Source: a virus
DNA: 64,000 nt
Reading direction: 5' to 3' (one strand)
IMG/VR virus record: IMGVR_UViG_3300037467_001303
Coordinates: 32,001 to 96,000 of that record
Below are positions 1,795-35,669 of this stretch, piece after piece. The notes under the pieces were generated by a model, which was not told the origin of the DNA, made no database searches, and saw only the letters and a program-made list of their open reading frames with translations. The translations under genes and the position numbers were made by a program. How positions within the stretch are numbered: position 1 is the stretch's first letter; every line of letters starts with the position of its first letter.

Positions 1795-1809
1795 TCGCCG
1801 CCGCGCCTG

Positions 1810-2649: not shown

Positions 2650-2672
2650 GGGGTGTCATACTATAACACCCC
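2650..2672. promoter_or_regulatory. parS-like palindrome, copy 3
   Basis: GGGGTGTCATA-C-TATAACACCCC, one mismatch to copy 2. Confidence 0.7.
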
Positions 2673-2678
2673 CCTGCA

Positions 2679-3484: not shown

Positions 3485-3500
3485 GGTGATGCTCCTCTGG

Positions 3501-4234: not shown

Positions 4235-4247
4235 GAAGCCTCCCGGA

Positions 4248-4613: not shown

Positions 4614-4628
4614 GGTTTTCCTGTGGTT

Positions 4629-4877
4629 TCAGTTCTGGTTCGGGCCGAACACCGGCTCGTTCTCGATCTCCCGGCGCTGGCGCGAGGAGCGCGGGGCCGG
4701 CTTGTCGGCCCAGGCCTTCAGCACCGGGGCCTTCGGGATGTCCGGCAGCGGCATGCGGTCGTACTGCTCGCGCGACCGGGCCGCCACGATCGCGTGCATG
4801 GCCCAGTGCAGATCCTGCGGGTCGGCCGTGTGCACGATCGGCACCGGCTCGTCCTTGCTGCGGCGTCCTGGCTTCAT
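4629..4877 (-). CDS. Hypothetical protein
   Basis: AAGGAG RBS; part of the leftward operon. Confidence 0.6.
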   Translation of the reverse strand: MKPGRRSKDEPVPIVHTADPQDLHWAMHAIVAARSREQYDRMPLPDIPKAPVLKAWADKPAPRSSRQRREIENEPVFGPNQN

Positions 4878-4891
4878 CGCGTCTCCTTCGG

Positions 4892-5260
4892 TCAGTTCGG
4901 CCGGCCTTCGGGCTTGGCCGAGTGCAGCATCACCTGGCGCATCAGGCTCTGGCAGATCGCCTCGGCCACGCCGATCGCCTCGTCGCCGGCGATGTCGCTG
5001 ATGATGTAGGCCAGGCCGTCGGTGACGACCGAGAAGCTGGCACCGTGGCGGCGCGCCTCCTCGGCGACCTCGGCCGGCAAATCGTCGCCCGCGTCGACCC
5101 GTTCCAGCTCCTCGTCGGTGAACGAGTCGAACAGCGCCGTGAAGTAGCAGCCGAAGCAGGGCCGGCCATGGCGGTCGCGGCCGATCACGACCAGGTCCGT
5201 GTCCGCCATCAGCGCGTCGGGATCGTCCTCGTCCTCGTCGGCGTGGAAGTAGTCAGTCAT
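4892..5260 (-). CDS. Hypothetical acidic protein
   Basis: Overlaps upstream stop; coding-like codon usage. Confidence 0.65.
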   Translation of the reverse strand: MTDYFHADEDEDDPDALMADTDLVVIGRDRHGRPCFGCYFTALFDSFTDEELERVDAGDDLPAEVAEEARRHGASFSVVTDGLAYIISDIAGDEAIGVAEAICQSLMRQVMLHSAKPEGRPN

Positions 5261-5828
5261 CGACCGGACCCTCCGGCGCGAGACCGAAGATGGCGCGCAG
5301 GTCGGCGTACTGCTGCGCGCTGGGCAGCGTGCGGCCGGTTTCCCAGTGGCTGATGCAGGTGCCGGTCATGTCGAACTTTTCTCCGAGCGCGTCCTGGGTC
5401 ATGCGCAGGCGCTTGCGGTGCCGCATGATCTGCTTGCCGGTCATGTACAGCGGACCGGCGTTCAGGCCGCGCACCCAGGGCTTGACGGGCAGCGCCTGCT
5501 CGGGAGCGGTGGCCGGCAGCGTTTCCGCCTGCTCGTCCTGCGGCGGGGCCGGCGGCAGGTCGTCCTTCGGCACCGGGTCCGGGCCGATGCGGACCTGCTG
5601 CGGCTTGCCGGCGCGTACGTCGACCACCTTGTCGAGGAAGCAGCCGACCCAGGTCGAGAACTTCTCGGCCGACCGGATCTCGCCGACGAACAGGCCGCAG
5701 GCGGTGGCGACTTCCTCGATCAGGTAGGCCAGGGCCACCTCGAACAGGATCGGGTCAGGGTTGGCGGCGAAGATGGCCTGCATGCGTTCATGCAGGTATT
5801 GCTCGGTGCGGTTGCGTTGGCGGGTCAT
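5253..5828 (-). CDS. Protein with C-terminal XRE HTH
   Basis: RKRLRMTQDALGEKFDMTGTCISHWETGRTLPS. Confidence 0.8.
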   Translation of the reverse strand: MTRQRNRTEQYLHERMQAIFAANPDPILFEVALAYLIEEVATACGLFVGEIRSAEKFSTWVGCFLDKVVDVRAGKPQQVRIGPDPVPKDDLPPAPPQDEQAETLPATAPEQALPVKPWVRGLNAGPLYMTGKQIMRHRKRLRMTQDALGEKFDMTGTCISHWETGRTLPSAQQYADLRAIFGLAPEGPVDD

Positions 5829-8353: not shown

Positions 8354-8396
8354 GGCGGCTCCTGTTTTTTTTCCAGAGGAAACAGGAACCAGTGTA

Positions 8397-8454
8397 TTAA
8401 AGTCCAACTTTAATTTACAAGGGAAACTTTAATATTTTTTAAGCGGACCTTAGA
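8397..8454. promoter_or_regulatory. OL-like operator cluster
   Basis: TTAAAGT-cca-ACTTTAA (8397-8413), TACAAGG-gaa-ACTTTAA (8416-8432) and a weaker third site; same 7-3-7 form and 19-bp spacing as OR. Confidence 0.7.
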
Positions 8455-8578
8455 TTACAATTCGGTGAACTTGTTGCATCTGCGCAAATGTTGATATGTA
8501 TCAAGCTCCAATCGCGTCACAAGATGCAGTCTGAGGCGCCTCCAACGCTTCTGTGGCCACCTCGGAAATGTGGAGACG

Positions 8579-9311: not shown

Positions 9312-9367
9312 TTAAAGTGGCGCTTGCCCGTTTCAAGTTTTACTTGAAGTTTCAAGTAGGACTTGTA
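9312..9367. promoter_or_regulatory. OR-like operator cluster
   Basis: TTCAAGT-ttt-ACTTGAA (9332-9348), TTCAAGT-agg-ACTTGTA (9351-9367) and weaker TTAAAGT-ggc-GCTTGCC, between cI and cro. Confidence 0.75.
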
Positions 9368-9377
9368 AAATGCCCTC

Positions 9378-9653
9378 ATGAAAAAACTTTCCGCACGGAT
9401 GCTCGCCGCCCGCCTGCGCCGCGAACGCAGGCACCTCGACCGCGCCATCGAGCACGTCGGCTCGCAGTCCAAGCTGGCCCGCCTGCTGGGCGTGTCGCCC
9501 CAGGCCGTGCGGCAGTGGTACACCAACGAGACCGGCGTGCCGCCGCGCCGCTGCCCGCAGATCGAACGCCTCACGCGCGGCAAGGTCATGTGCGAGCAGC
9601 TGCGCGAGGAATTCGAGTGGGTGCGCGTCATCAGGAAAGGTGCCCGCGAGTGA
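9378..9653 (+). CDS. cro: Cro/YdaS-like regulator
   Basis: AIEHVGSQSKLARLLGVSPQAVRQW...VPPRRCPQIERLT. Confidence 0.88.
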   Translation: MKKLSARMLAARLRRERRHLDRAIEHVGSQSKLARLLGVSPQAVRQWYTNETGVPPRRCPQIERLTRGKVMCEQLREEFEWVRVIRKGARE

Positions 9654-21625: not shown

Positions 21626-21945
21626 GCACCATCCATATTCTCTATATTGGCAACAACAGCATCGTGGACGTGACGGGCCTGAAGAACGAGAACAGCGGCG
21701 CGGTCGTGACCGATGCGCGCGTCTCGGTGGCCCTGTTCGACGCCGCCGGCCTGCCGGTCGCCGGGGCGCAGTGGCCCCTGGAAATGGCGTACCTGGCCGA
21801 CTCGAACGGTGTCTACCGCGCTACGCTGCCGTACACGCTCGACCTGGCCGAAGGAGGGCGCTACATTGCGCGCGTCGTGGCCGATGCCGGCGACGGCCTG
21901 CACGCGCAGTGGGACATGCCCTGCGTGGGCCGGCTGCGGACGTAA
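21622..21945 (+). CDS. Small beta-rich virion-associated protein
   Basis: Coupled to the fibre gene; GVYRATLP motif. Confidence 0.55.
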   Translation: MSTIHILYIGNNSIVDVTGLKNENSGAVVTDARVSVALFDAAGLPVAGAQWPLEMAYLADSNGVYRATLPYTLDLAEGGRYIARVVADAGDGLHAQWDMPCVGRLRT

Positions 21946-21966
21946 AAAAGCCGCCCGCAGGCGGCT
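21944..21966 (-). terminator. Terminator ending antisense island 1
   Basis: GCCGCC stem with U6 on the minus strand. Confidence 0.75.
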
Positions 21967-21985
21967 CGAACGGAACTGTGCCGGC

Positions 21986-22255
21986 TCAACTGCACCAGCC
22001 GCCGATCCGGTCCCACAGCAGATTCAGGTAATAGCCGATCTCATTGGTGTTGCCGACCATCGCCTCGGCGGCATCGTGCAATGAGATCATGCCGTCGAAC
22101 CCGCCGAAGAAGGCGGCGGTCTGGCCGATCAGGCGGATGTCGTGACAGATCGCCTGTCCGCGCGCACCGTTGCGCTGCTGCTTGTCCATCTGGTCCCACT
22201 CCCGCACCAGTTCGACGAGCACGTCTGCGATGGGGCGTTCGTTGCTGATGTCCAT
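21986..22255 (-). CDS. Hypothetical protein
   Basis: AAGGAG RBS. Confidence 0.65.
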   Translation of the reverse strand: MDISNERPIADVLVELVREWDQMDKQQRNGARGQAICHDIRLIGQTAAFFGGFDGMISLHDAAEAMVGNTNEIGYYLNLLWDRIGGWCS

Positions 22256-22267
22256 CTTGTCTCCTTG

Positions 22268-22483
22268 TTAGCGTGGGGAATAGCCCTGTTCGGCCAGCGC
22301 CGCCTGGACGGCCTCGATCCCGCGGATCATGCGGTAGGCCAGGGCGGTACGTTCGGCTTCGGGCAGGTGCGGTTCCGTCTTGTTGTAGAACGTCTGGAAC
22401 GTTGACCGCTTGCAGAACTGCGCCAGTTCCCACGCACAGTCGTCGTCCATGGTGGCGGTGATGGTGACGGGATCGTGGCTCAT
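22268..22483 (-). CDS. Small conserved mobile-element protein
   Basis: AWELAQFCKR...AYRM...LAEQGYSPR. Confidence 0.65.
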   Translation of the reverse strand: MSHDPVTITATMDDDCAWELAQFCKRSTFQTFYNKTEPHLPEAERTALAYRMIRGIEAVQAALAEQGYSPR

Positions 22484-22887
22484 GATGGCTCCGACTCGTT
22501 TACGATCGCCACGCGCAGCGCCATCATGGACTGAGCATACTCCCAGCGCCATTCGTAGTACGCCGCCGTCTTGCACATATGGTCGTAGTCCTTGCGCGCC
22601 TGATGGTAGGCGTTGACGGCGTCCTGGAACCACGCGTACTCGCCTTCGAGGTCGAAGCAGTCATCATTGATCCAGCTTTCGAGCATCTTGCGGTCCTCCT
22701 CGGGGATGCCCTCGGGGACCTTCGGGAAGGCCGGTCCATCGTATTTCGGCGTGCTCGGCTTGAACCAGTAGGGAATTTCGTGCGGCGCGTGCGCGGCGAA
22801 ATAGTCCAGCAGGGTAATCACCTGGCCATCGTCGTGGCCGGCTAGTGCGGTGTTGAAGCTGGCGTGGCGTCGGGTTCTGTTTTGCAT
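22480..22887 (-). CDS. Hypothetical protein
   Basis: TLLDYFAAHAP...WRWEYA; AAGGAG RBS. Confidence 0.65.
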   Translation of the reverse strand: MQNRTRRHASFNTALAGHDDGQVITLLDYFAAHAPHEIPYWFKPSTPKYDGPAFPKVPEGIPEEDRKMLESWINDDCFDLEGEYAWFQDAVNAYHQARKDYDHMCKTAAYYEWRWEYAQSMMALRVAIVNESEPS

Positions 22888-22897
22888 GGTCGCTCCT

Positions 22898-23350
22898 TTA
22901 GTGAAGGTGGTTGCGAAGGACGGGCTGCTGCTTGACAAGGGACGGCTCGAACCCGGAATCCCATGGCCATCGCCGATTCTTGTCAGGCCACACTAGTTGT
23001 AGCGCGGTGTAGTCGGGGAAACGGTGCAGGACGGCATACATGTACTGGTCGGCTTCGCTGCGCGGCGCCGGTACAAGGCGCGCGGGGAAGCCCTCGGCCA
23101 CGTCGTCCAGGTCGGTATCGAGCGCCGGTACGCCGCTGTTCGTGAAGCGCCTGCCCATGTCGTTCAGGAACCTGTGCGCGATCTCCATCGGCAGGCCGAA
23201 CATGATGATCTCTGGATAGCCCTTCGCGCTCAGGCCGACCGTGTACGAGAATGGCGGGCTGTTATCACTGCCGAACACACCCTGTACGGCCCATCCGTAC
23301 TTGGCGATCATGGCGTCGAATTCGGCTTCGACGGCTTTGCGGTCTTTCAT
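22898..23350 (-). CDS. DUF4262 domain protein
   Basis: I..YGWAVQGV...PFSYTVGL...PEIIMFGL...LQLVWPD..RWPWD. Confidence 0.8.
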   Translation of the reverse strand: MKDRKAVEAEFDAMIAKYGWAVQGVFGSDNSPPFSYTVGLSAKGYPEIIMFGLPMEIAHRFLNDMGRRFTNSGVPALDTDLDDVAEGFPARLVPAPRSEADQYMYAVLHRFPDYTALQLVWPDKNRRWPWDSGFEPSLVKQQPVLRNHLH

Positions 23351-23371
23351 GCTTGCTCCTTTTGGTGGTTG

Positions 23372-23395
23372 AAAAAAGGCAGGCCGAAGCCTGCC
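23372..23395 (-). terminator. Intrinsic terminator
   Basis: GGCAGGC-UUCG-GCCUGCC-U6 on the minus strand. Confidence 0.8.
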
Positions 23396-23399
23396 GGGG

Positions 23400-23576
23400 T
23401 TACTGTTTCGGTTTCGTTCCCTGTTCGGCCTTGTACGCCTTGTACAGGGGCGAACGGTAGATGGTGGACAGGGCGATCCCGACCTGCCTGGCGGCAGCGT
23501 AGGCCGACAGCGTGCCGCCACTCGCGCGCAGCAGGGCGACGGCCTTGGCGACTTCGGCGGACGGACGGCCGCTCAT
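23400..23576 (-). CDS. 58-aa HTH protein, Aca-like position
   Basis: Hand translation MSGRPSAEVAKAVALLRASGGTLSAYAAARQVGIALSTIYRSPLYK...; AAGGAG RBS; not in the ORF track. Confidence 0.75.
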   Translation of the reverse strand: MSGRPSAEVAKAVALLRASGGTLSAYAAARQVGIALSTIYRSPLYKAYKAEQGTKPKQ

Positions 23577-23608
23577 TGCTTGGCTCCTTGCATGGTTCTC
23601 TCCTTCGG

Positions 23609-23812
23609 TTACAGGCCCGCTTCGCGCGGGTCGATCAGGTCATACTTGCGCGCCCAGGCGTCAACCGTGGCTTCCACAGGCCGGTCGCCGGCATCGCACT
23701 CGTACAGTTCGGCCAGCATCAACTCGTCGTCCCAGCACCAGCGGTCGCTGGCGTAGGCCAGGATGCGCTGGAACAGGTGGTCGGTCGTGTCGTTCACGTC
23801 AGCCCCTTTCAT
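23609..23812 (-). CDS. Hypothetical small acidic protein
   Basis: In operon; start uncertain. Confidence 0.55.
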   Translation of the reverse strand: MKGADVNDTTDHLFQRILAYASDRWCWDDELMLAELYECDAGDRPVEATVDAWARKYDLIDPREAGL

Positions 23813-24126
23813 TTGTGCAGCAGCCCGTTGCGGTCGCCCGGATCAATCGGCGAAGCGGGATGGTAGTCGAACAGCTTGGCCCAGGGGATGCTGGCCAGTG
23901 CTCCGCGCAGGACCGGCAGGGTCTCGATGCAGCACGCTGCGAGCACCAGCACCGCGCTGGCCAGCACCAGCGGCCACGTCCTGCGCCCGGCCTGGACAGC
24001 GGTGACGGGCCGGTCGCGCATCCACTGGCGCTCGGCTGCGGTCGCCACCCACGGATCACGCGCCGGGGTGACGAACCGCCCGTCAGGCTTCGTCACATGG
24101 TGACGAACTTCGTCAGGGCGGGTCAT
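23809..24126 (-). CDS. Hypothetical membrane protein
   Basis: One hydrophobic segment, WPLVLASAVLVLAACC. Confidence 0.55.
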   Translation of the reverse strand: MTRPDEVRHHVTKPDGRFVTPARDPWVATAAERQWMRDRPVTAVQAGRRTWPLVLASAVLVLAACCIETLPVLRGALASIPWAKLFDYHPASPIDPGDRNGLLHK

Positions 24127-24128
24127 GG

Positions 24129-24545
24129 TCAGGCTCCGTCGTTGGCGGCAGCGGGCGCCATGATGGCGTCGGCGGTCTTGTCCAGCGCAGCACGCATGCG
24201 GCGCGCGAGGTCCTTGTCGTCGCGCACGCGGAAGAACGATTCGACGAGGTCGATCAGAATCTCCATCGCGTGCGCGTCATTGGGCAGCCCGTTGTACTCG
24301 ATGATGCTGTCGCCCAGCCAGTCGCCGAATTCCAGACTGACTTCGTACTCGAACACGCCGGGATAGTCTTCGCGCACGGCCTCGGCAGCCTCGCGCAGCG
24401 CATCAATGCGCGGCACCCATTCCATGGCGGCATCGACCAGCTCGATCATGCCTTGGTCGTACGCCTTGTAGACCTTGTCCAGGTCGGCCCTGTACAGGCC
24501 CTGCATCACGAATGCCGCCGTGATTGCGGTCTGACGCTGATCCAT
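24129..24545 (-). CDS. Hypothetical acidic protein
   Basis: AAGGAG RBS, preceded by leader repeat A. Confidence 0.7.
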   Translation of the reverse strand: MDQRQTAITAAFVMQGLYRADLDKVYKAYDQGMIELVDAAMEWVPRIDALREAAEAVREDYPGVFEYEVSLEFGDWLGDSIIEYNGLPNDAHAMEILIDLVESFFRVRDDKDLARRMRAALDKTADAIMAPAAANDGA

Positions 24546-24551
24546 TGCTAT

Positions 24552-24613
24552 CTCCTTGGGTTGCCGGGACAATTCCCGCACCAGCGCCCGCACATGGCAG
24601 GCGCTGATACTGG
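24552..24613 (-). repeat. Two-hairpin leader repeat, copy A
   Basis: CCAGTATCAGCGCC-loop-GGCGCTGGTGCGGG-AATTG-TCCCG...AAGGAG. Confidence 0.75.
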
Positions 24614-24618
24614 CGCTG

Positions 24619-24867
24619 TCACTTGGGACGGGTTTCGTCCTTGTACATGCCGCGCGCCTTGGCCAGGGCCGCATCGAAGTCGATGCCGAGCCGGTCGCAC
24701 CAGTGCATGAGATCGGCCAGCAGGTCGCCGAGCACGGTGGCGTTATCCTCTCCGGCCCGCACCATGCCGGTCGCATGCGCGAAGGTCATCACGCCCTGCG
24801 CGGCCCATCCGGCGCGCTGCTCGTTCATCCCGTCCGGGTCGGGCGGCAGGTTGGAGATCGTGTTCAT
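24619..24867 (-). CDS. Hypothetical protein
   Basis: PPDPDGMN..RA.WA...DLLADLMHWCDR. Confidence 0.7.
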   Translation of the reverse strand: MNTISNLPPDPDGMNEQRAGWAAQGVMTFAHATGMVRAGEDNATVLGDLLADLMHWCDRLGIDFDAALAKARGMYKDETRPK

Positions 24868-25295
24868 TGCCCGTCCTCCGGTTCGTACTCGATGTCGAAG
24901 CCGGCTTGACGGTTCGACACCCACATCCACGCCATCACATAGGCGCCGTCATCGTCGCCCTTCGAGACGACTGCGGGATTGTCCACCTCGATCTCACCGT
25001 CCTTGGCCATGCGCTGCGCTGCGGCCACGTAAGGGCTGTGCTGGGCCAGCTCGGCGAACATCGGCACGATGGCCGAGAAGTCCAGGCCGTGGTGGTTCAG
25101 GCTATCGCACAGCTCGCTGATGTCGTCGCCCTCCAGCGGTTGCAGCGTGCCGCAGTTGCTGGCAATGTCGTTGATGCCTGCTGGCAGATCGCCGAACGCG
25201 TCCAGATTCGACTGGTAGAAGCGCAGCGCGGCCAGCACGGTCGCGTGGGCTTCCTGGGTCAGCGCGTACAGCGCGGGTTTCTTGGTGTCGGACAT
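24864..25295 (-). CDS. Hypothetical acidic protein
   Basis: DGEIEVD..AVVS..DD.GAYVMAWMWV. Confidence 0.7.
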   Translation of the reverse strand: MSDTKKPALYALTQEAHATVLAALRFYQSNLDAFGDLPAGINDIASNCGTLQPLEGDDISELCDSLNHHGLDFSAIVPMFAELAQHSPYVAAAQRMAKDGEIEVDNPAVVSKGDDDGAYVMAWMWVSNRQAGFDIEYEPEDGQ

Positions 25296-25297
25296 GG

Positions 25298-25750
25298 TCA
25301 GGCTCCTTTCGTGGTGTCAAGTGAAGGGCAGTCGGCAGGCGCGGCAACGCTCCAGCCCCGCGCACGCATGATGCGGCCGACGATGTACAGGGTGTAGTGC
25401 GGCACGTCGCGGTCGGCGATCCCGATCACGGCGCCACACTCCGGGCAGCAGCCGGCCGGGGCAAGTTCCCCAGGTAGCACGCGGTCGTGAATGTGGTGGA
25501 TGTGGTGAATCCCGTTGATCTCGCTCATGGTGCCGGTCCAGTCGCACTCCTCGCACGCGTAGGTGGTCGGCGTGCCCGGCTTCTGCTTCGGCGCGGCCGG
25601 CGGCAGCGGTTCGACCAGGTGCCGGAACAGACCGTACAGCACGTTGTAGTCGTCGCCGGTCGGCGCACGTTCCTCGGCGCTCAGCCTCGCGTCGTAGTCT
25701 TGCATGGCCTTCACCAGCCGCTCCAGCGGGTCCTGCGGTGTCGTTGTCAT
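25298..25750 (-). CDS. Hypothetical zinc-finger protein
   Basis: CEEC...RV.PGE..PAG.CPECG. Confidence 0.7.
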   Translation of the reverse strand: MTTTPQDPLERLVKAMQDYDARLSAEERAPTGDDYNVLYGLFRHLVEPLPPAAPKQKPGTPTTYACEECDWTGTMSEINGIHHIHHIHDRVLPGELAPAGCCPECGAVIGIADRDVPHYTLYIVGRIMRARGWSVAAPADCPSLDTTKGA

Positions 25751-25756
25751 GGCATC

Positions 25757-25813
25757 CTCCTGTGATCGGGACTATTCCCGCGTCAGCGCCCCCTCTGGAG
25801 ACGCTGACACTGG
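25757..25813 (-). repeat. Two-hairpin leader repeat, copy B
   Basis: CCAGTGTCAGCGTC-loop-GGCGCTGACGCGGG-AATAG-TCCCG...AGGAGG. Confidence 0.75.
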
Positions 25814-25814
25814 C

Positions 25815-26090
25815 CTAGTCTTCGTAGCGTGTCAGTCCGGGGACCGTGTCGCCGTCGCTGTCAAAGCGCAGCAGCGCGATGCCCAGGCGTTGTGCGTAGC
25901 GCATGACGCCCGCCAGATCGTCGGGCAGGCTGGAAAGACTCTGTTCCATCACGTCCGGCACCGTCACGAAAAAGCCGTTCGGATAGGCGCCGATGCTCAT
26001 GGCGGGCCAATTGTTGTCGCCGCGTTGCATCTTGTCCATGGTGCGCTGTGTCAGGTAGCCTGTAGACAGGTCCAGGTAGGTATAGAGCAT
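25815..26090 (-). CDS. DUF5983-like protein
   Basis: LDLSTGYL...GFFV...LP.DL..V..YA...G...LRFDSDG...GL..Y. Confidence 0.65.
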   Translation of the reverse strand: MLYTYLDLSTGYLTQRTMDKMQRGDNNWPAMSIGAYPNGFFVTVPDVMEQSLSSLPDDLAGVMRYAQRLGIALLRFDSDGDTVPGLTRYED

Positions 26091-26099
26091 GGCGTTCTC

Positions 26100-26474
26100 C
26101 TAGAGTCGGGTTGCCACGCGGGCGTTGGCGCGCAGGATCGTCCAGTGCTCGATCTCGTTGTCGCAGTAGCGGATGTATGCCGCTTCGCGCTGCGCCTCGT
26201 CACTGCCGAACACGGCGAAATCGCGCTCGCTCGGGCCGGTCTGGAGCGCAGCGGCTGTTTCGCAATGGTCGTCCACGAACGCAATCAGGCCGTCCCACAC
26301 GACGCTGTAGTGAGCGTATGGCACGTCCTCGTTAAGGGCGATCTCCAGCAGGTTGCCGTTCAGGGTCCAGGTGCTGTATTCCTCGGGCTGGACCAGTTCG
26401 GCCAGCGCCTCGATAGCGGCCTCATGGCCGGGTTTGATGCGCAGCTCGCCGCGCAGGAACAGATTGGTGCTCAC
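26100..26474 (-). CDS. Hypothetical acidic protein
   Basis: AGGAGG RBS and GTG start, preceded by repeat C. Confidence 0.65.
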   Translation of the reverse strand: MSTNLFLRGELRIKPGHEAAIEALAELVQPEEYSTWTLNGNLLEIALNEDVPYAHYSVVWDGLIAFVDDHCETAAALQTGPSERDFAVFGSDEAQREAAYIRYCDNEIEHWTILRANARVATRL

Positions 26475-26479
26475 AGTGC

Positions 26480-26544
26480 CTCCTATAGGTGGTTGCCGGG
26501 GACTGCCCCCGCGTCAGCGCCCGTTGTCCAGGCGCTGACACTGG
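26480..26544 (-). repeat. Two-hairpin leader repeat, copy C
   Basis: CCAGTGTCAGCGCC-loop-GGCGCTGACGCGGGG-GCAGT-CCCCG...AGGAGG. Confidence 0.75.
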
Positions 26545-26545
26545 A

Positions 26546-26932
26546 TCAGTCGTCAGCCTGCTCGATCTGCGCCTCGACCCACTGCCAGTAACCGCGCAGG
26601 GTGTCGCCCTCGGCCACTTCGTGCCGCCAGTCGCGGCGCAGGTACTGCGGATGCTCGCCGTTGTCGCGCTCGGTGCTGTACTTCTCCTGTAGCTCGTCGG
26701 CGGCCAGCAGGCGGTCGGAGCGCGCCAGCTCGGGCCGGTAGGGCATGCCGTCCGGCGCGCCTTTCTTGATGTTGAAGTCCCACTCGGACACGGTCGCGTC
26801 CGTCATGGCCGTCAGGATGTCGTGTTGCCCGATGTGGTGCGCGGCGGATTCCAGGTTGTGGCCAAGCTGCGCCGCGTCGGATTCGTCCGCGTCGAAGGTG
26901 AAGTTCAGGATCAGGCGTCGTTTGATGAGCAT
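26546..26932 (-). CDS. Hypothetical protein
   Basis: GEHP.Y...DW..EV....T..GYW.WV; GGAGG RBS. Confidence 0.7.
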   Translation of the reverse strand: MLIKRRLILNFTFDADESDAAQLGHNLESAAHHIGQHDILTAMTDATVSEWDFNIKKGAPDGMPYRPELARSDRLLAADELQEKYSTERDNGEHPQYLRRDWRHEVAEGDTLRGYWQWVEAQIEQADD

Positions 26933-26945
26933 GGTCGCCTCCGTC

Positions 26946-27452
26946 TCACAGCAGGCCACATTCGGCCATCGAGCACGATGCGGCCGCGGTGACGATGATG
27001 TGGTCAAGCACGCGCACGTCGATCAGGGCCAGCGCCTGCGACAGCTGGTTGGTCAGCACCTTGTCGGCCTCGCTCGGTTCGACCTTGCCCGACGGATGAT
27101 TGTGCGCAAGGATCACGTGGGCGGCGTTGTGGTGCAGCGCGGCCTTGACCACTTCGCGCGGGTAGACCCTCGCGCCGGTCAGGTCGCCCCGGAACATTTC
27201 CTCGCGCGCGATCAGGCAGTTCTTGGCGTCCAGGAACAGCACCATGAAGACTTCGTGTTCCAGCTCGCCGGCGTACAGGCGCATGTACTCGCGCACCGCC
27301 GACGGACGGGTCAGCAGCTCGCCGGGCTTGCGCATGCGGTTCGAGAGGATCGACAGGGCGCGGCGGATCGTGGCGTCCTCGCGCTGCCTGCGGGTGTCCG
27401 GGCGCGGTTGAACCGGCTCGGTGTGAAGGGTAACGACGTTCGTGCGGGTCAT
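26946..27452 (-). CDS. radC: RadC/JAB domain protein
   Basis: [28 protein letters not shown] and VLDHIIV motifs. Confidence 0.93.
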
Positions 27453-27501
27453 GACAGGCTCCAGAGTAGGGCGCAGCCACATGGGCCGCGCCGTGGGTTC
27501 A

Positions 27502-27873
27502 TCAGGCAGGTTGGGCGGCTTCGTCTTGCAGGCGGTAGTATTCGCGCGCCTCGGCCAGCACCTTGTCGATCTCCAGCAGTGCCTGCGCATGGGTGTCGCG
27601 GATGGCCTTCTCGGTGCCGCGCTTGCCTTGTGCTACCAGCAGCACGCGCGACAGGTCGCCGCCAGTGCCGCCCAGGTTGAACCGATGCGACCGGAAATGG
27701 CCCTCCCGCTTGTGGCCCGTCACGCATGTCGCCACGCCGACCACACGGCCCCGCTGTGTGTGCTTGCCAGTGCGGAGCACGATCACGCGGCTGTTGCCGA
27801 TGTCGCACTCGGTCTCTGCTTCCCAATCGGCGTGCAGGGTCTTGCCGATCTTGGTCTGGTGCTGCTGTTCCAT
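27502..27873 (-). CDS. Hypothetical protein, first gene of island 1
   Basis: AGGAGG RBS. Confidence 0.7.
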
Positions 27874-27932
27874 GATGCCCTCCTATGGTTGAGTGATTGA
27901 CGGACAGTGCGGGCGCACAAGCCCACGAACAC

Positions 27933-27961
27933 AGTATATAGCATGATGCTACATAAGTACA
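27933..27961 (-). promoter_or_regulatory. Island 1 promoter with overlapping palindromic operator
   Basis: -10 TATACT (27933-38, minus strand); TATATAGCAT-G-ATGCTACATA inverted repeat at 27935-27955; -35 weak. Confidence 0.6.
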
Positions 27962-28007
27962 TGCACGATTGCGCACGGCAATGCGCGCATACCCAGGACA
28001 GAACACC

Positions 28008-28565
28008 ATGAGCACCCAATACGACTTCGCCGCCGCCGAGATCGACTACGCGGCCGGCGGCTATTCGATCAACGCACTGGCGATCAAGCACAACATTCCC
28101 GAGCCGACCTTGCGCAGGTACGCGAAGAAACAGGGCTGGATCAAGGGGACCAGCGATGTTAAGCGCGAACTCGTCCGCGAGGCAATGGCCGGGATGCCGC
28201 TTGACGAATCGTTGACGAACGAAATGACGAATGGCGAGGCGATTCGTCAGGTCCAGCTCGATGAAGCGACGCAGGACGTGGCCGACATGAACACCGGCCT
28301 GGCAGTGGCCCGTAGAAGCATGGGCAAGCTGCTGCAAATGGTCGACCAGGTCGATCACCCCAAGGACGTGAAGACCATCTGCGAGGCCAACAAGCTGGCA
28401 GTGGAGACGATCCGCAAGATTCGCGCACTGGACGACGACACCCCGCCCGAAGCCAGCGTGCAGGTCGAGATCAGCGACGGATTCGCCGAGCTGCGCGCCG
28501 CCTTCCACAAGCGCCTCCAGCAGCCCGTAGGAGCTGTCCAGGACGACGATGCTGGCACTGCCTGA
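28008..28565 (+). CDS. terS: Terminase small subunit
   Basis: N-terminal HTH (SINALAIKHNIPEPTLRRYAKKQGW); directly upstream of TerL. Confidence 0.75.
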   Translation: MSTQYDFAAAEIDYAAGGYSINALAIKHNIPEPTLRRYAKKQGWIKGTSDVKRELVREAMAGMPLDESLTNEMTNGEAIRQVQLDEATQDVADMNTGLAVARRSMGKLLQMVDQVDHPKDVKTICEANKLAVETIRKIRALDDDTPPEASVQVEISDGFAELRAAFHKRLQQPVGAVQDDDAGTA

Positions 28566-30482: not shown

Positions 30483-30617
30483 TCATCGCTTCCACTTTGC
30501 CCCGAGCGCGGCCAGGATCGCGTCGTTGCCCACGCCGCGCACCGTGAACGACCGGAAGTGCTTCCACCGGCAGCGGCCAACGTAGCGCCCCTCTCTCTGG
30601 TTGCGGCTAGTCGTCAT
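30483..30617 (-). CDS. 44-aa SRNQREG-motif protein
   Basis: Hand translation MTTSRNQREGRYVGRCRWKHFRS...; GGAGG RBS. Confidence 0.55.
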   Translation of the reverse strand: MTTSRNQREGRYVGRCRWKHFRSFTVRGVGNDAILAALGAKWKR

Positions 30618-30870
30618 GGCCTGCCTCCTCCAGCACCACCTCGGCCATGATGCCCTTGCTGCGGTAGCGGATGCGCAGCGGCAGGACCGGCGGCACAGGG
30701 CTACGGGCGTTCATCGTCAGCCATGCGACCCCACTGTCAGGGAAGGGGATCGAGACCGGCAGCACCTCAACGTCGCCGACCATCAGCGCATCGAGCATGG
30801 CGCGGCGCCGGACATGCTTGCCGGCCCAGGTTCCGACGTACCAGCCTTCGCGCTGTCGCCGGCTGCTCAT
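30607..30870 (-). CDS. SRRQREG-motif protein
   Basis: MSSRRQREGWYVG; coupled to neighbours. Confidence 0.55.
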   Translation of the reverse strand: MSSRRQREGWYVGTWAGKHVRRRAMLDALMVGDVEVLPVSIPFPDSGVAWLTMNARSPVPPVLPLRIRYRSKGIMAEVVLEEAGHDD

Positions 30871-31031
30871 GCCGCTCCCTGCTGGCCGGTCAGTCTAGCC
30901 ACGGTCTCTTCCAGTTCGCGGACTTTCTCCAGCAAGGCAGCAGCACGCTGCTGTGCCCACTCGGCAGTCTCGAAGGGAAACTGTGCCCGGTAGATGTACT
31001 CCTGCAAGGCCGGGATAATGCTGTCGTTCAT
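30867..31031 (-). CDS. 54-aa hypothetical protein
   Basis: MNDSIIPALQEYIY...; ATGA overlaps on both sides. Confidence 0.5.
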   Translation of the reverse strand: MNDSIIPALQEYIYRAQFPFETAEWAQQRAAALLEKVRELEETVARLTGQQGAA

Positions 31032-31384
31032 AGCGCCCCCTGTCCATCGAGCATGCGGTTCGCCACCAGCGGCACGCCGAGTTCCCGCGCCATCCTGCGT
31101 GCGAGCTGGCCACGACGGAAGGCGCGAGCGAACTGCGCGTGCGGCCTCGGCACCAGTGGAGCGTAGCGGCGCACCGCCCTGCCATCCACATGGCCCATGT
31201 AGAAGCCCTCCCGCTGGTTGCGGCTGGTGGGCATGGTCCCCGGCAAGATACCCGACACGACCCAGGCAGCGTACTGGTTGCGGGTCAGGCCCAGGAACTC
31301 GCGCAGGGTCCGGCCCTCGCCCTCACCGGCATGCCAGCGTTCGGTGAGATCGTCGAGCTGTTCAAGGGATGGCAGTCGGGTCAT
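31028..31384 (-). CDS. Hypothetical protein with internal SRNQREG motif
   Basis: ERWH...L.EFLGLT..QY..WV followed by MPTSRNQREGFYMG. Confidence 0.6.
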   Translation of the reverse strand: MTRLPSLEQLDDLTERWHAGEGEGRTLREFLGLTRNQYAAWVVSGILPGTMPTSRNQREGFYMGHVDGRAVRRYAPLVPRPHAQFARAFRRGQLARRMARELGVPLVANRMLDGQGAL

Positions 31385-31671
31385 GCAGGCAGCTCGCCGG
31401 TATGCACCTGGCCAGCCTGCACCAGTGCAAGGTACTCTGGATCGTCGTAGATGCGCTTCGAGCCGACCACGGCGCGGTAGATGCGACCCTCGGCGTCCGA
31501 GAACAGGCACAGGTCGCTGTTCGAGACGGTGCGATTGCGCCCGCAGGCCTTGCCGTTGGAGACGACGTAGCGGACCGCGCAGCCGGCGTCCAGCGCCTTG
31601 CGGAACGCGTGCTCGTCCTTCATGCCGATCACGGTGTCGGCAATGCGTTGCGCCCTCTTGATCACGGCCAT
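31381..31671 (-). CDS. Hypothetical protein
   Basis: Coupled ORF. Confidence 0.55.
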   Translation of the reverse strand: MAVIKRAQRIADTVIGMKDEHAFRKALDAGCAVRYVVSNGKACGRNRTVSNSDLCLFSDAEGRIYRAVVGSKRIYDDPEYLALVQAGQVHTGELPA

Positions 31672-31672
31672 G

Positions 31673-31903
31673 TCAGAAGTCCTCGTAGTTCAGGGTTGGC
31701 TTGTCCAGGGCGACCAGCATCTTCGTCAGGCCGGTCCGCAGGTCCTCGACGCTGTCAAAGCTGGTCGTCATGGCGTTCTGCGTGATCGAGTGCGGCGCCT
31801 CGATGGGCGTGTCGTAGTGCGCTTCGTGGATCGCGTAGGACTCGTAGCGCACGCCTTCGACGATCTGCGTCGAGCGGACGACGCGGTAGTTCCAGGTGTT
31901 CAT
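31673..31903 (-). CDS. Conserved phage hypothetical protein
   Basis: WNYRV...YAIHE.HYD...L..M..ALDKP.L. Confidence 0.65.
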   Translation of the reverse strand: MNTWNYRVVRSTQIVEGVRYESYAIHEAHYDTPIEAPHSITQNAMTTSFDSVEDLRTGLTKMLVALDKPTLNYEDF

Positions 31904-32094
31904 TCGGATTGGTTCCTCGGCAGGGCGTGGAAGGTGTGGTTGCAGTGCGGGCAGGTGTAGATCACCAGGTTGAAGAACGGCTCGACCTCGACCGCATCGG
32001 GATGGCCCCACTGATAGCGGTCCTTGTCCTCCTTCGGCATCGGGTATTCGGCCGTGCAGTAGCGGCGGTGCAGCGGGATGTACGTGGCCTGCAT
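31900..32094 (-). CDS. Small zinc-finger protein
   Basis: W.HPDA...Y.CPHC.H.F. Confidence 0.55.
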   Translation of the reverse strand: MQATYIPLHRRYCTAEYPMPKEDKDRYQWGHPDAVEVEPFFNLVIYTCPHCNHTFHALPRNQSE

Positions 32095-32096
32095 CG

Positions 32097-32336
32097 TCAG
32101 TCCCGCTCCAGCACCCATTCGGCACGGCCGATGTACACCATTTCTTCCCACTGAGCGAAGTAGAACGCCGCGCCACCGGGCTGGCCGTTCTCTCCAGTCA
32201 TCTGGACGTAGACCATGGCGCCGAAGTCCTTCGGCTCGCGGACAGTGGCGAAGCAGCAGGCGAACATCGGGTTGCGGCACTCGGGCGAGAGCTGGACGAC
32301 ATCGCCCTCTTCGAGCTGGCGGGCGTCCGGCTTCAT
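32097..32336 (-). CDS. Hypothetical SH3-like protein
   Basis: GDVVQL.P...FA.CF..V.EPK.FG...YIGRAEW. Confidence 0.6.
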   Translation of the reverse strand: MKPDARQLEEGDVVQLSPECRNPMFACCFATVREPKDFGAMVYVQMTGENGQPGGAAFYFAQWEEMVYIGRAEWVLERD

Positions 32337-32557
32337 GCCTTGCGCTTCTCAAGCGCCTCGATCACGTCGCCGATGGCGCTGCGCAGGGCTTCCAGGTACT
32401 TATCGGCGGGCATGTCCTCGGGGTCCAGCATTTCGGTCAGGTAGGCCGCGATGTCCTCGTCGGTGTTCAGGTAGTCGGACGCCTTCCACGGTTGCAGCGC
32501 GGCGATCTTGTCCTGGTCGAACTGGATGTTGTCGTTGGTGTCGTTGGTGTCGGTCAT
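32333..32557 (-). CDS. Truncated addiction-module antidote-like protein (no HTH)
   Basis: WKASDYLNTDEDIAAYL...ALRSAIGDV resembles the N-terminal half of HI1420-family antitoxins. Confidence 0.6.
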   Translation of the reverse strand: MTDTNDTNDNIQFDQDKIAALQPWKASDYLNTDEDIAAYLTEMLDPEDMPADKYLEALRSAIGDVIEALEKRKA

Positions 32558-32567
32558 GGTTGCTCTC

Positions 32568-32906
32568 TCAGCGGTCGGAAATTCGGGTCATCTGCCCGCA
32601 CTTCTCGCACTTGGTGCGGGATCGTTCGCGCAGGCGTTGCAGCTGGTCATGGTAGCTGCGGCGGTAGTTGTGCCACTGCGTCTCCTGCCTGGCCAGTTCG
32701 CCCAGCACGTGCATCGGGTTCAATCTGGCATGGCAGGTGCCGCACTCGACCTCTGCCAGCTTCTCGTCGATCAGGTACGGCCCCTTGTGGCGGAACATGC
32801 AGGGGCTACGGTCCTTCGGCGCCAGCGTCAGCACCGGCGGATTGTCGGCATCAAGCGGCCCGCGATAGCGTACGCCAAGGGACACCACGTTGTCGTCTTC
32901 GATCAC
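32568..32906 (-). CDS. Zinc-finger phage protein
   Basis: C..H...IDE...VECGTC...LNP...RSRTKCEKCGQMTRI. Confidence 0.65.
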   Translation of the reverse strand: MIEDDNVVSLGVRYRGPLDADNPPVLTLAPKDRSPCMFRHKGPYLIDEKLAEVECGTCHARLNPMHVLGELARQETQWHNYRRSYHDQLQRLRERSRTKCEKCGQMTRISDR

Positions 32907-32908
32907 GG

Positions 32909-33046
32909 TCAGCCCCAGATCGCGTACAGGCCGCCGATCATCCCGATGATGCACAGGACACCATAGACAGGTTCGGCGAAGGCGATGAGGGTACAGCCAG
33001 CGCAGCAGGCCACGCTGGCGATGGCGCGGGCGGTCGGGTTGGTCAT
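32909..33046 (-). CDS. 45-aa membrane peptide
   Basis: MTNPTARAIASVACCAGCTLIAFAEPVYGVLCIIGMIGGLYAIWG, two hydrophobic segments. Confidence 0.5.
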   Translation of the reverse strand: MTNPTARAIASVACCAGCTLIAFAEPVYGVLCIIGMIGGLYAIWG

Positions 33047-33321
33047 GCTTGGCCCTCGGGATCGTCATCGAACGGGATCGGCCTCTCCACCTCGGACGGA
33101 TCGAGCCGGCGATAGGCGCGGAACACGTCGAACACATAGTCGTCTTCCGGGTCCTTGATCGACTCCAGAAAGACCTGGCCAAACTTGGTACGCCAGTGGA
33201 TGAACACGCCGCGCTCGCCGTTCCAACGGGCCACGGTGGCGTTGCGGCAGCGGCCCTCGTAGTAGGCGCCATGCACCAGCTCGGCGCGGGCGATGATCGG
33301 TCGTTCCTTGGGATGCGTCAT
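33043..33321 (-). CDS. Conserved phage hypothetical protein
   Basis: L.HGAYY.GRCRNATVARWNG...F.HWRTKFG. Confidence 0.65.
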   Translation of the reverse strand: MTHPKERPIIARAELVHGAYYEGRCRNATVARWNGERGVFIHWRTKFGQVFLESIKDPEDDYVFDVFRAYRRLDPSEVERPIPFDDDPEGQA

Positions 33322-33575
33322 TCGGTGCGTTCTCCTGGTCCATAAGGCCACGGCAGCGTTTCGACGGTGTAGCCGCAGCCGGCCTTGCAGCACCAGTGGC
33401 CCGGATGGGCGTGCAGCTCGGTCAGCTGCCACCAGCCCAGGTCGTGCCGGCAGCAGGCGCGGCAGATCGTGCTGTGGTTCTCGTCGTACATGTACACGCC
33501 CGCTCCCTTGCAGGTCGGGCAATCGGGCCGCGCATTCTCTGCCGCGTGCCGGAACACGTTGGTCAATTGTGGCAC
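33318..33575 (-). CDS. Cys-rich zinc-finger protein
   Basis: CPTC, CRACCRH and WCCKAGCG. Confidence 0.55.
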   Translation of the reverse strand: MPQLTNVFRHAAENARPDCPTCKGAGVYMYDENHSTICRACCRHDLGWWQLTELHAHPGHWCCKAGCGYTVETLPWPYGPGERTE

Positions 33576-34027
33576 TCCGGGTCCAGCAGATGGCGCAGCT
33601 GTCGATAGTCGCCCAGGCTCACGCCGAAGTCGGGGTTGGTCTGGACGAAGCGCGCCGCCAGCTCGGGATGCCCGTCGCAGATCGCCACGTCATCGACGAT
33701 GGCGAAGGTCGTCACCTCCGGGTGCCGGGCGAGCCAGGCCGCGATCTCCGTGCCCCGTGTGTCGTAGCCGCCATGGTCCGGCGTCTCGTCGATCACCGGC
33801 AGGTCCAGCGCCTCGGCGACAACGCCGGGACGGTGGTAGATGCGCCAGGTCGACGACAGCACGATCACCGCCCCGGTCACGCGGCACACGCGGCGGATCA
33901 GGCCGAGGGCGACGTGGTCGAACCTGGCCATGTCGGCTTCCGAGAAGTCGTGCGGATAGCCGCCCAGCGCAAGGCTGCTGCGCTCGCTGTTGACCACGCC
34001 ATCAATATCAAAGAACAGCACCTTCAT
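33563..34027 (-). CDS. HAD-family protein (Swiss-Army-knife RNA-repair-like HAD)
   Basis: FFDIDGVVN, IVLSSTWR, RG.EI..WL and AIVDD. Confidence 0.85.
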   Translation of the reverse strand: MKVLFFDIDGVVNSERSSLALGGYPHDFSEADMARFDHVALGLIRRVCRVTGAVIVLSSTWRIYHRPGVVAEALDLPVIDETPDHGGYDTRGTEIAAWLARHPEVTTFAIVDDVAICDGHPELAARFVQTNPDFGVSLGDYRQLRHLLDPECHN

Positions 34028-35616
34028 GCTTGGCCCTCGGTCTTCTGCATGCGGTCGGTGAAGTCCTGCACGCTGCGGTAGAACACTGCGCCGCTCTCGA
34101 CGCTGCGGTAGACCACCACTTCGGGCAGATCCCGGCTGGTGCCTGCACCCCTGGCGATCCCGGCCAGCTCGTAGTTCCCGCCCTTGCCGATGCAGGTGTA
34201 GAACTCGCCGGTGACGGTATTGAGCCGTCGGGCGATTTCCTCGGCATGGGCGCGTTCGCGCTCCACCGAGCCGAAGTCGCCGCTGATTTCCAGCGACACG
34301 TCGTGCGTGAAGTCGTCGGACTGGATCACGATGCGGCCCTGGCCCCAGTCGTTGACCTGCCACGGACCCTTTTCCGTGACTGTCACGGATTCGCGCTCCA
34401 GCGCTGCGCGCAGCTTCGGCAGCGCCTTCTCGGCTTCCTTGTACGCCTGGCCATCGTCGCCCTGCAGGATGTCGTCGAGCCGGTTGATCGCCACCCGCAG
34501 CGCGTCAATTCCCCCGAATTCGCGGGAATTGGCCAGCCCACTGCCGCCGCACGCCTTGCAGGTGTCGTCGCCACCAGGCGGCACCGGCGAAGTCTTGATG
34601 CCCTGGCCGACGCATTCCTTGCACCAGTCGCCCAGCATGGCCTGCGCTTCCGCATCGGCAGCAGCGTGGCCAGCTGGATCGGCGCGGCGCGAGGCGGCCT
34701 CGTAGATCGCGCCGTCGCCCGGGGCGTCTTCCTGATCGAGGCTGGCCAGAATCTTGCGGATGTCCTGGGCATAGACTTTTGCCACCGCATGGCTTACCCC
34801 GCCGAACTCGAACCGGCCGGCCAGGAATTCGAGCATGCCGCGCGCCGTCGTTGCCACAGGATCGTTGCAGCCGCAGTCGCAGTCCTTCCTGATCCTGGCC
34901 TCGGCCGCCGGACTGGCCGCCATCCGTTCGCGCAGCTCGATGCACTCCTGCGACTTCGCCGTAGCCCTGGCTTCGGCCCGGTCGGCGCGCAGCGTCTCGG
35001 CAGCAAGCCGGCGGTGCAGCGCGATGATCTCCTCGTCGGCCGTGATCGCGGTTCCCCAGCAGGTCCTGTTGATCTCGGCCTCGATCTCGGCATGGGTCCG
35101 CTCCGGGTAGGCCCGCACCATGTTGACGTGGAAGGCGGCGCGCAACTGGCGCAGCCTGGCCAGCACCGCCTCGGACACGAACATCGGCGGCACCCGCTCG
35201 TCGATCAGCCCCGCCTCGACCAGCTCCTGGCGAACCATGTCCATGCAGTCGGCCATGCCCTGCAGCGCCAGGCGCTCCGTATCGACCTCCGGGCGGTCCA
35301 GCAGCCGCGCGAAGGAGCGGTCAAACGCTTCCAGTTCGTGCTGCCAGTACGCGGCCGAATCGTGGTTGCGCCGTTCCGTCTCGGCGTTGATGCACTCCGT
35401 GATCGCGTCCCGCCATGCCGAGCGGTGCGTCGTGAAGTTCGCCGGGATGTACTGCTGCGCCGGATCGCCGGCGCGGGCCTGCTCCACCAGCGGCTTGAGC
35501 GCGGCACGCGCGTCCGCCGGCAGGATCTGCTCCCACTCGTCGTAGTAGTGCACCAGTTGCCGGTCGCGGCTCATGCCCCCGCCAGCGCCTTGTTCTGTTT
35601 CTTTTTGGATATCCAT
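34024..35616 (-). CDS. Large mosaic multidomain accessory protein
   Basis: Long ORF with GC3-rich codons; CKEC/CKAC zinc finger and a C-terminal KGG.Y...VVYR domain; start uncertain. Confidence 0.65.
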   Translation of the reverse strand: MDIQKETEQGAGGGMSRDRQLVHYYDEWEQILPADARAALKPLVEQARAGDPAQQYIPANFTTHRSAWRDAITECINAETERRNHDSAAYWQHELEAFDRSFARLLDRPEVDTERLALQGMADCMDMVRQELVEAGLIDERVPPMFVSEAVLARLRQLRAAFHVNMVRAYPERTHAEIEAEINRTCWGTAITADEEIIALHRRLAAETLRADRAEARATAKSQECIELRERMAASPAAEARIRKDCDCGCNDPVATTARGMLEFLAGRFEFGGVSHAVAKVYAQDIRKILASLDQEDAPGDGAIYEAASRRADPAGHAAADAEAQAMLGDWCKECVGQGIKTSPVPPGGDDTCKACGGSGLANSREFGGIDALRVAINRLDDILQGDDGQAYKEAEKALPKLRAALERESVTVTEKGPWQVNDWGQGRIVIQSDDFTHDVSLEISGDFGSVERERAHAEEIARRLNTVTGEFYTCIGKGGNYELAGIARGAGTSRDLPEVVVYRSVESGAVFYRSVQDFTDRMQKTEGQA

Positions 35617-35669
35617 CACGCCAGTTTCTCGCGTGCTGTTACCACCTGTCAAGAGTTCGGAGACCTCCC

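Follow-up and report, generated by a model that had tools for sequence, protein, structure and literature searches.

The early operon of phage T7 is driven by host promoters and encodes small, partly acidic proteins, its transcript is cut by RNase III, or stabilised, at repeated intercistronic hairpins, and the anti-restriction gene 0.3/ocr is among its first genes. Here we describe an island of 16 small genes in viral DNA from IMG/VR, record IMGVR_UViG_3300037467_001303, which shares traits with this operon and with other described systems. The window, i.e., the whole stretch of 64,000 nucleotides that was analysed, comprises bases 32001-96000 of the 104,865-bp record (GC 67%), and positions given below are those of the window unless stated otherwise. 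We propose that the island is a self-regulated, hyperplastic accessory operon whose cargo would serve early counter-defence or host takeover, a reading that we hold to be about evenly balanced between right and wrong. Its most solid new items are the pair formed by an operator-like palindrome and a small helix-turn-helix (HTH) protein, g12, and a covarying RNA element that recurs between the genes.

Related systems

The island resembles the T7 early operon in that small, partly acidic proteins occur together with repeated intercistronic hairpins. It differs in its stems, which at 13 + 4-5 bp are shorter than typical RNase III substrates, and in that the island is not known to be the first part of the genome to enter the cell.

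A second point of comparison are the anti-CRISPR (acr) operons, for which anti-CRISPR-associated (Aca) regulators and intra-operon RNA motifs have been documented (PMC13551039). As in acr-aca operons, small cargo genes are followed by a small HTH gene in the same operon, an inverted repeat lies within the (here predicted) promoter, structured RNA motifs are present in the leader and between genes, and the region is a variable one of the mobile-element kind. In contrast to them, the island has 16 genes rather than the usual few, and its candidate regulator is HTH_7/HTH_23-like and internal in most relatives. Nor was an anti-CRISPR (Acr) homologue found, since the 16 proteins gave no Acr match in Pfam, PHROGs or NCBIfam, nor did four PDB profiles, though Acrs are very diverse and a new one may still be among the proteins. 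Unlike in the Aca2 case, there is no resemblance between the DNA operator and the intercistronic hairpins.

The hyperplastic regions of T4-type phages carry PeSL elements, each consisting of an early promoter and a terminator stem-loop (PMC2839356, PMC4122927). There, as here, a conserved stem-loop motif repeats between shuffled ORFans; in our lineage, the motif sits at cassette borders in 2-5 copies per island, and one identity breakpoint adjoins it. Unlike PeSL, the element described here shows no promoter-like hexamers in a scan and no U-tract, and it lies 0-10 nt past a stop codon, directly before a ribosome-binding site.

Finally, RadC-JAB, DUF5983 and DUF7706 are common to the island and to the RadC accessory segments of conjugative plasmids, integrative and conjugative elements (ICEs) and cryptic prophages, such as yeeS...yeeW of E. 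coli CP4-44. As in these segments and in leading-region anti-defence islands (PMC11541004), small acidic genes share one orientation; some plasmids carry ardB/ardR in the vicinity, and a Burkholderiales plasmid has radC close to DUF7706. Unlike those segments, the island belongs to a lytic-looking phage and has no ssb, psiB, ardA or klcA, no single-stranded DNA promoter and no relation to a transfer origin.

An operator-like repeat over the candidate promoter

By gene order, the island is a reverse-oriented insertion between a fibre-like module and terS, inside a plus-strand block whose known members are virion and packaging genes. The features on which its proposed regulation would depend are the following.

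27935-27955, no strand: palindrome of 21 bp, operator-like, in the divergent gap before terS; arms TATRTAGCA / TGCTATATA
27956-27961, minus strand: candidate -35, TGTACT, 3/6 matches, 17 nt upstream of the -10
27933-27938, minus strand: candidate -10, TATACT, which shares bases with the palindrome's right arm
27909-27926, minus strand: GC-rich hairpin where the transcript is predicted to begin; in relatives, different bases form a hairpin at the same place
23400-23576, minus strand: g12, 58 aa, basic HTH protein, candidate autorepressor
23378-23395, minus strand: hairpin followed by T6, terminator-like, 3' of g12; absent in most relatives

Relatives were collected by searching IMG/VR with the HTH protein and the large terminase subunit TerL, which yielded about 14 independent contigs whose TerL is 79-99% identical to the one studied here. 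When the divergent gap was aligned for 13 phages, the palindrome proved to be its only strongly conserved block: the 9-nt arms TATRTAGCA / TGCTATATA are invariant, the 3-nt centre is variable, and the surroundings have drifted. Within this one sequence, the repeat reads as 10-nt arms with one mismatch around a 1-nt centre. Invariant arms flanking a variable centre fit a dimeric DNA-binding protein, and not an RNA hairpin or a bare -10 box. The palindrome is single-copy in the genome, where its half-site is found nowhere else. Palindromes of like quality number 17 in the window versus 10.7 +/- 2.3 in simulations, such that the repeat, taken by itself, is not beyond chance; what lends it weight is a GC content of 29%, a place between genes and the conservation described above.

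In the direction of the island, the -10 hexamer TATACT consists of the four bases that end the right arm and of the adjoining CT. This hexamer is kept as TATACT or TATAGT in 13 of 13 aligned loci (TATAGT in three phages), and in the direction of terS no comparable -10 is conserved in the same alignment. By manual reading of the sequence, TGTACT-17-TATACT matches the consensus at 8 of 12 positions, and the -35 position of the relatives matches TTGACA at about 2-4 of 6. The 9-3-9 repeat thus appears to overlie both spacer and -10 in the sole plausible promoter of the island, one with a weak -35 and a good -10. The initial annotation had placed the 21-bp palindrome (27935-55) over a promoter; the repeat is indeed present and conserved in 13 loci, and the promoter beneath it is a predicted one.

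Being AT-rich and only about 55 nt upstream of terS, the palindrome could instead be a pac site or a replication origin next to that gene. However, the phage L027/L010 combines a highly divergent TerS (no tblastn match, other HTH sequence) with an identical palindrome, L022 lacks the palindrome in spite of a TerS of the same HTH type, and the island-less relatives L024 and L025 have none. Since the palindrome does not track the TerS type, a pac or TerS-binding site is largely refuted by the comparison of relatives and can for practical purposes be ruled out; we hold that a pac site or origin at this place is most improbable.

The HTH protein g12

The small basic protein g12 has weak Pfam matches to HTH_7/23/28. 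Its third and fourth helices (IALSTIYRSxLYKAY) are invariant among the relatives, whereas identity outside them goes down to 59%. An AlphaFold2 (AF2) model shows four short helices (pLDDT 78); its fold matches (Foldseek, VIA) were restricted to generic TetR-, AraC- and transposase-type HTH domains, with Z of at most 4.3, and PDB sequences gave no match to g12 at E up to 10. The gene is co-oriented with the cargo genes g1-g11, tightly spaced and downstream of them. Together, g12 and the palindrome occur in 11 contigs, nine of which span the complete island together with DNA upstream of it; neither occurs in L022-L025.

It is also conceivable that the palindrome is bound by another phage regulator or a host factor, as an early/late switch at the gap between island and terS, and that g12 has another job. 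The repeat does lie between two divergent units, terS has no recognisable promoter of its own, a second palindrome family with three copies (see below) indicates that other regulators exist, and the relatives of g12 are transposase-type HTH proteins. Against this, no contig has the palindrome without g12, and the palindrome is missing from L022 and L023 despite a similar TerL (and, in L022, a similar TerS HTH); its unique half-site leaves no regulon visible, and its arms are invariant just as the third and fourth helices of g12 are. On balance, we consider a different binding factor unlikely, and a role of g12 in autorepression of the island promoter is well motivated, though unproven.

The likeness to Aca proteins suggested by the initial annotation fared less well in its particulars. 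It had put a 58-aa HTH gene just before the first terminator, which is correct for this phage (hairpin and T6, 23395-23378) and incorrect for most relatives, where there is no terminator and the next gene (DUF4262 or another) follows g12 after about 0-30 nt or overlaps it. The terminal position known from acr-aca operons is not found, as g12 is the 12th of 16 co-oriented genes and internal in the relatives. Its identification as an Aca is not supported either, in that g12 is of the HTH_7/HTH_23 type and showed no detectable Aca link in Pfam, PDB or fold matches. Finally, the proposed guilt-by-association search with g12 returned only three weak matches in 185,579 bacterial genomes.

A covarying RNA element between genes

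26491-26548, minus strand: two-hairpin element, copy 1, between the g3 stop codon and the g4 ribosome-binding site
25761-25817, minus strand: two-hairpin element, copy 2, before g6; an identity breakpoint versus L002 lies just downstream
24558-24617, minus strand: two-hairpin element, copy 3, before g9

Three near-identical elements of about 58 nt are found in the island, each between a stop codon and the next ribosome-binding site, and these three are the only ones in this genome. A covariance model built from them identified 39 strong copies in 15 sources, all of them on the sense strand and inside islands, with 2-5 copies per island. The proposed pairing is well supported by the alignment, in which 97% of the cells are paired, versus 41-53% when the partners are slid against each other. 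Compensatory double changes are seen in 8 of the 13 pairs of helix 1, and the second, small hairpin and the flanks are conserved at the sequence level. In an exact-pattern scan of 2.9 million IMG/VR viral contigs, the element was found almost only in this lineage; across 21900-28100, neither the element nor the leader had an Rfam 15 match at E up to 1.

The element is most likely a signal for RNA processing or stability, or for translational control. Secondarily, it may be a conserved linker for the recombination of cassettes, because the identity breakpoint adjoins copy 2 and because a conserved 60-nt block between unrelated genes could serve such a purpose. The nearest precedents for the element are the RNA motifs within acr-aca operons, PeSL and the RNase III sites of the T7 early operon.

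Two further candidate functions were rejected. Hairpin promoters for a virion RNA polymerase, as in N4, were dismissed on the grounds that the giant protein of the phage has no polymerase domain in Pfam and that the elements abut stop codons. For attC-like recombination sites, the R'/R'' core motifs are not visible in the alignment of the elements.

A mosaic and dispensable island

In all contigs with enough upstream DNA, apart from the island-less ones, the order is the same: fibre-side genes on the plus strand, the island on the minus strand, then terS-terL on the plus strand. The closest relative, with 99% identity in TerL, matches our phage at 94-100% over most of the flanks, whereas within the island blocks of 95-99% identity alternate with blocks that were replaced, inserted or deleted. 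Individual genes come and go, with g1 present in four contigs, g4 in three and g16 in five, and three contigs without the DUF4262 gene. In other phages, this site is home to at least 17 additional gene families. L022 and L023 have a different, longer island there, which shares only homologues of g1, RadC and g7-g9. The island is entirely missing from L024 and L025, which have a lower GC content and a TerL of 80% identity and in which terS comes directly after the 107-aa gene, on the same strand. Absence in relatives, block mosaicism and changing content, as read from these alignments, establish the island as a dispensable, mosaic insertion that turns over much faster than its flanks.

The island-less junctions are located at L024:760-1300, where there is one extra gene of 121 aa, and at L025:1195-1700. 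At the distal island end of another relative, L005:9490-10067, there is an ORF (open reading frame) of 67 aa together with an ORF for a PIN-domain (VapC-like) protein.

Gene content of the island

Sixteen minus-strand ORFs with products of 58-168 aa fill 21986-27873. With start codons picked by the ribosome-binding site, 13 of the 16 are preceded by AGGAG, GGAGG or GGAG at a distance of 5-12 nt, and 12 of the 16 proteins have an isoelectric point (pI) below 6, the basic ones being g1, RadC (g2), g10 and the HTH protein. In these respects, the picture of 16 small antisense ORFs, often acidic and with ribosome-binding sites, stands as it was initially drawn. The GC content at third codon positions is 0.84 in the island versus 0.93 in large genes. 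By tblastn, all 16 ORFs have homologues in at least three related phage islands, which indicates that they are real genes and not shadow frames in GC-rich DNA. Apart from g12, the rows are as follows.

27502-27873, minus strand: g1, basic protein of 123 aa without a family match; homologues confined to L002, L007, L022 and L023
26946-27452, minus strand: g2, short RadC-like JAB protein; Pfam PF04002, 1e-43; the start at 27452 agrees with relatives
26546-26932, minus strand: g3, 128 aa, acidic; phrog_11556; conservation limited to the C-terminal half
26100-26474, minus strand: g4, 124 aa, acidic, no family
25815-26090, minus strand: g5, DUF5983 (YeeW-like); Pfam PF19419, 5e-17
25298-25750, minus strand: g6, 150 aa; conserved CxxC...CPxC in the alignment, zinc-ribbon-like
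24864-25295, minus strand: g7, 143 aa, the most acidic, with pI 4.1 and net charge -17; phrog_6739
24619-24867, minus strand: g8, 82 aa; phrog_3963
24129-24545, minus strand: g9, 138 aa, acidic, all-alpha
23809-24126, minus strand: g10, 105 aa, basic, with one hydrophobic segment; probable membrane protein
23609-23812, minus strand: g11, 67 aa, acidic
22898-23350, minus strand: g13, DUF4262; Pfam PF14081, 6e-33; missing in L002, L005 and L007
22480-22887, minus strand: g14, 135 aa, acidic, no family
22268-22483, minus strand: g15, DUF7706; Pfam PF24806, 1e-20
21986-22255, minus strand: g16, 89 aa, acidic, no family
21948-21967, minus strand: island terminator, a hairpin with a T-run on the minus strand only, 3' of the last gene

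Because this last hairpin has its T-run on the minus strand only, plus-strand transcripts from the fibre-side genes may continue into the island, where they would be antisense RNA, and reach terS.

The RadC/JAB, DUF5983-like and DUF4262 genes named in the initial annotation were all recovered by Pfam (1e-43, 5e-17 and 6e-33), and DUF7706, which it had lacked, is an additional member of the island (1e-20). In PHROGs, the island proteins matched RadC and otherwise just families of unknown function, and in NCBIfam they matched RadC only.

The JAB motif HNHPSG...SxxD of g2 is intact, and the helix-hairpin-helix (HhH) half is absent. Against the NCBIfam RadC model, g2 covers only model positions 86-211 of 212 and scores 153.8 bits, with a cut-off of 180. 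By these matches, it is the short form of RadC found on mobile elements and not full-length RadC/YicR. In the literature, the RadC of conjugative elements and prophages is seen as a domain that probably processes nucleic acids, and according to one paper, it is often paired with a small neighbouring protein. The DUF5983 gene sits downstream of the toxin gene cbtA in E. coli, and DUF7706 is an abundant protein of pOXA-48. A Janthinobacterium conjugative plasmid encodes a 60%-identical copy of the DUF7706 protein some 2.3 kb away from radC, and on an E. coli plasmid, DUF7706 is found about 6 kb from ardB/ardR. The idea that radC travels with anti-restriction genes on mobile elements therefore agrees with our findings, in that RadC, DUF5983 and DUF7706 are found on plasmids and cryptic prophages, in some cases near ardB.

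Among the ORFans, g9 gave a confident model (AF2, seven helices, pLDDT 91), for which Foldseek and VIA returned generic helical matches and no convincing fold counterpart in the PDB. In BFVD, the model matched uncharacterised proteins of Pectobacterium, Aeromonas and Stenotrophomonas phages, the two best with TM of 0.66-0.70. There are about 170 sequence relatives of g9, some of them in metagenome-assembled genomes of Nitrosomonadales and Gallionella; it was found in one of 400 sampled genomes, and a tblastn search against phages gave no match. A search with g13 against phages gave three distant jumbo or large phages only. PDB profile searches with g6, g7, g9, g12 and g14 returned nothing below E 0.1, and the ESM Atlas matches of g7 and g4 (scores 0.79-0.88) are leads only. 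The 'DUF4262' of a Shedu preprint was set aside as irrelevant, as it is apparently a slip for DUF4263.

Counter-defence, takeover or benefit to the cell

How would such an island work? Host RNA polymerase would start at the TGTACT-17-TATACT promoter, a g12 dimer would bind the 9-3-9 repeat over the spacer and the -10, and accumulated g12 would shut the operon off, which is the logic of Aca regulators. The two-hairpin element 5' of the ribosome-binding sites of g4, g6 and g9 would tune RNA processing, stability or translation, and as a conserved 60-nt block, it could also link swappable cassettes. The 15 cargo proteins would act early on host proteins or nucleic acids, be it in counter-defence or in host takeover, and this is the least supported step. 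An anti-defence role is inferred here through guilt by association, because of the high turnover, the small acidic ORFans and the plasmid-type neighbours. The regulatory half of the earlier view, an Aca-like autoregulated accessory operon, is strengthened and well supported by the comparison of relatives.

Several observations weigh against this picture. Shared descent is a confounder in the joint occurrence of g12 and the palindrome, and other genes do nearly as well: g11 accompanies the palindrome in 10 of the 11 contigs with g12, and g9 does so in every complete island that holds g12. By its matches, g12 is a generic protein of the HTH_7/HTH_23 type without detectable relation to solved regulators, and its wider relatives, HTH_7/HTH_23 proteins of 43-65 aa, are labelled transposases or transposase fragments by their sources. 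A sigma-70 consensus scan called no promoter at the island start. The two-hairpin element occurs once in L023, which is without g12, and is hence independent of g12. With respect to the cargo, no named anti-defence family was found among the 16 island proteins (Pfam, PHROGs, PADLOC, NCBIfam) or, with Pfam only, among 20 proteins from the islands of relatives, and four PDB profile searches with core island proteins gave no anti-defence match.

The last of these points leads to a different view of the cargo, namely an early set for host takeover and DNA processing, without counter-defence, in which nucleic acids would be the targets of RadC-JAB and its partners, other proteins would redirect host metabolism, and the HTH protein and its operator would limit dosage. 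Besides the failure to find anti-defence homology with Pfam, PADLOC and NCBIfam, it is favoured by the fact that the phage already has a polyvalent protein of about 7200 aa (ART, InPase, helicase), and polyvalent proteins have been proposed to act in early phage-host conflict. However, essential takeover genes would not be expected to be absent in close relatives or to be swapped at such a rate, and where small acidic ORFans turn over fast, an arms race is the more typical setting. A pure takeover set is thus possible, if rather doubtful.

The cargo could also benefit the infected or lysogenised cell, by way of superinfection exclusion, toxin-antitoxin or defence genes. The PIN (VapC-like) gene with its small upstream partner at the island end of one relative would be in line with this, as would the association of DUF5983 with the CbtA toxin in E. 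coli and the membrane-protein-like character of g10. Yet PADLOC detected no defence family among the island proteins, and the gene set is like the accessory genes of plasmids and ICEs rather than like a defence island. Furthermore, no integrase or repressor turned up among about 50 ORFs in scans of family libraries, although no targeted search was made. We therefore regard a benefit to the cell as very unlikely, and return to the self-regulated accessory operon as our preferred reading.

Setting in the genome and side observations

The ends of the record overlap by 5.3 kb at 99.9% identity, giving a unit genome of about 98.9 kb. In genome coordinates, 1-5436 overlaps 98899-104865 with an indel of about 540 bp (104175-104717 versus 5277-5288), which suggests that the record is a circularly permuted or concatemeric assembly of the 98.9-kb unit carrying a population variant. 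By megablast against 50,697 phage records, the island DNA had zero matches. Compared with the terminases of VpV262-like, SIO1-like and other phages, TerL shows no more than about 22-32% identity. On these comparisons, the phage belongs to an undescribed lineage, of about 99 kb and 67% GC.

Toward lower coordinates, the island is flanked on the plus strand by genes for a helicase and a primase, then a virion structural protein and proteins of 896, 687 and 107 aa; toward higher coordinates, TerS and TerL are encoded, again on the plus strand. A second reverse-oriented cluster of small genes lies just past terL (30600-35650, minus strand), such that terS-terL is bracketed by two antisense units. 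The polyvalent protein is encoded by a single open frame of about 7200 codons that runs from genome position 94751 across the contig join to 17452 (its start lies at 62751-64000 of the window), and Pfam recognises InPase, SNF2-type helicase, ART-PolyVal and LPD39 domains in it.

The second palindrome family, GGGTGTTATA-N-TATAACACCC, has three copies at 614-634, 1771-1793 and 2650-2672, in a leftward block of small genes, and is probably the operator set of another regulator. AT-rich stretches (GC of at most 34% over 30 nt) are rare in the genome; among the few are 8384-8479 and 9328-9392 of the window and genome positions 26443-26811. These are candidates for promoter or origin regions, and 9328-9392 holds short repeats.

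Implications

In its most far-reaching form, our proposal would be that g12 and the 9-3-9 operator define a new, HTH_7/23-type, Aca-like family, that they control a long counter-defence operon with a new RNA element, and that several of the about 30 ORFan families inhibit betaproteobacterial defences. We put this forward tentatively, as an outcome that is possible and rather unlikely to hold in full.

Aca genes have served as search handles, and high-GC environmental phages are almost unannotated. If the regulatory reading is true, the pair of g12 and its operator would be such a handle for accessory or counter-defence cargo in high-GC environmental phages. The site offers about 30 small protein families for screening, and with the covarying intercistronic hairpin comes an RNA element that is defined, can be tested and has no match in Rfam. 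Even if the cargo should turn out to be unrelated to defence, the locus would still show how a reverse-oriented, hyperplastic operon is inserted and controlled within the plus-strand fibre-terminase block of a phage.

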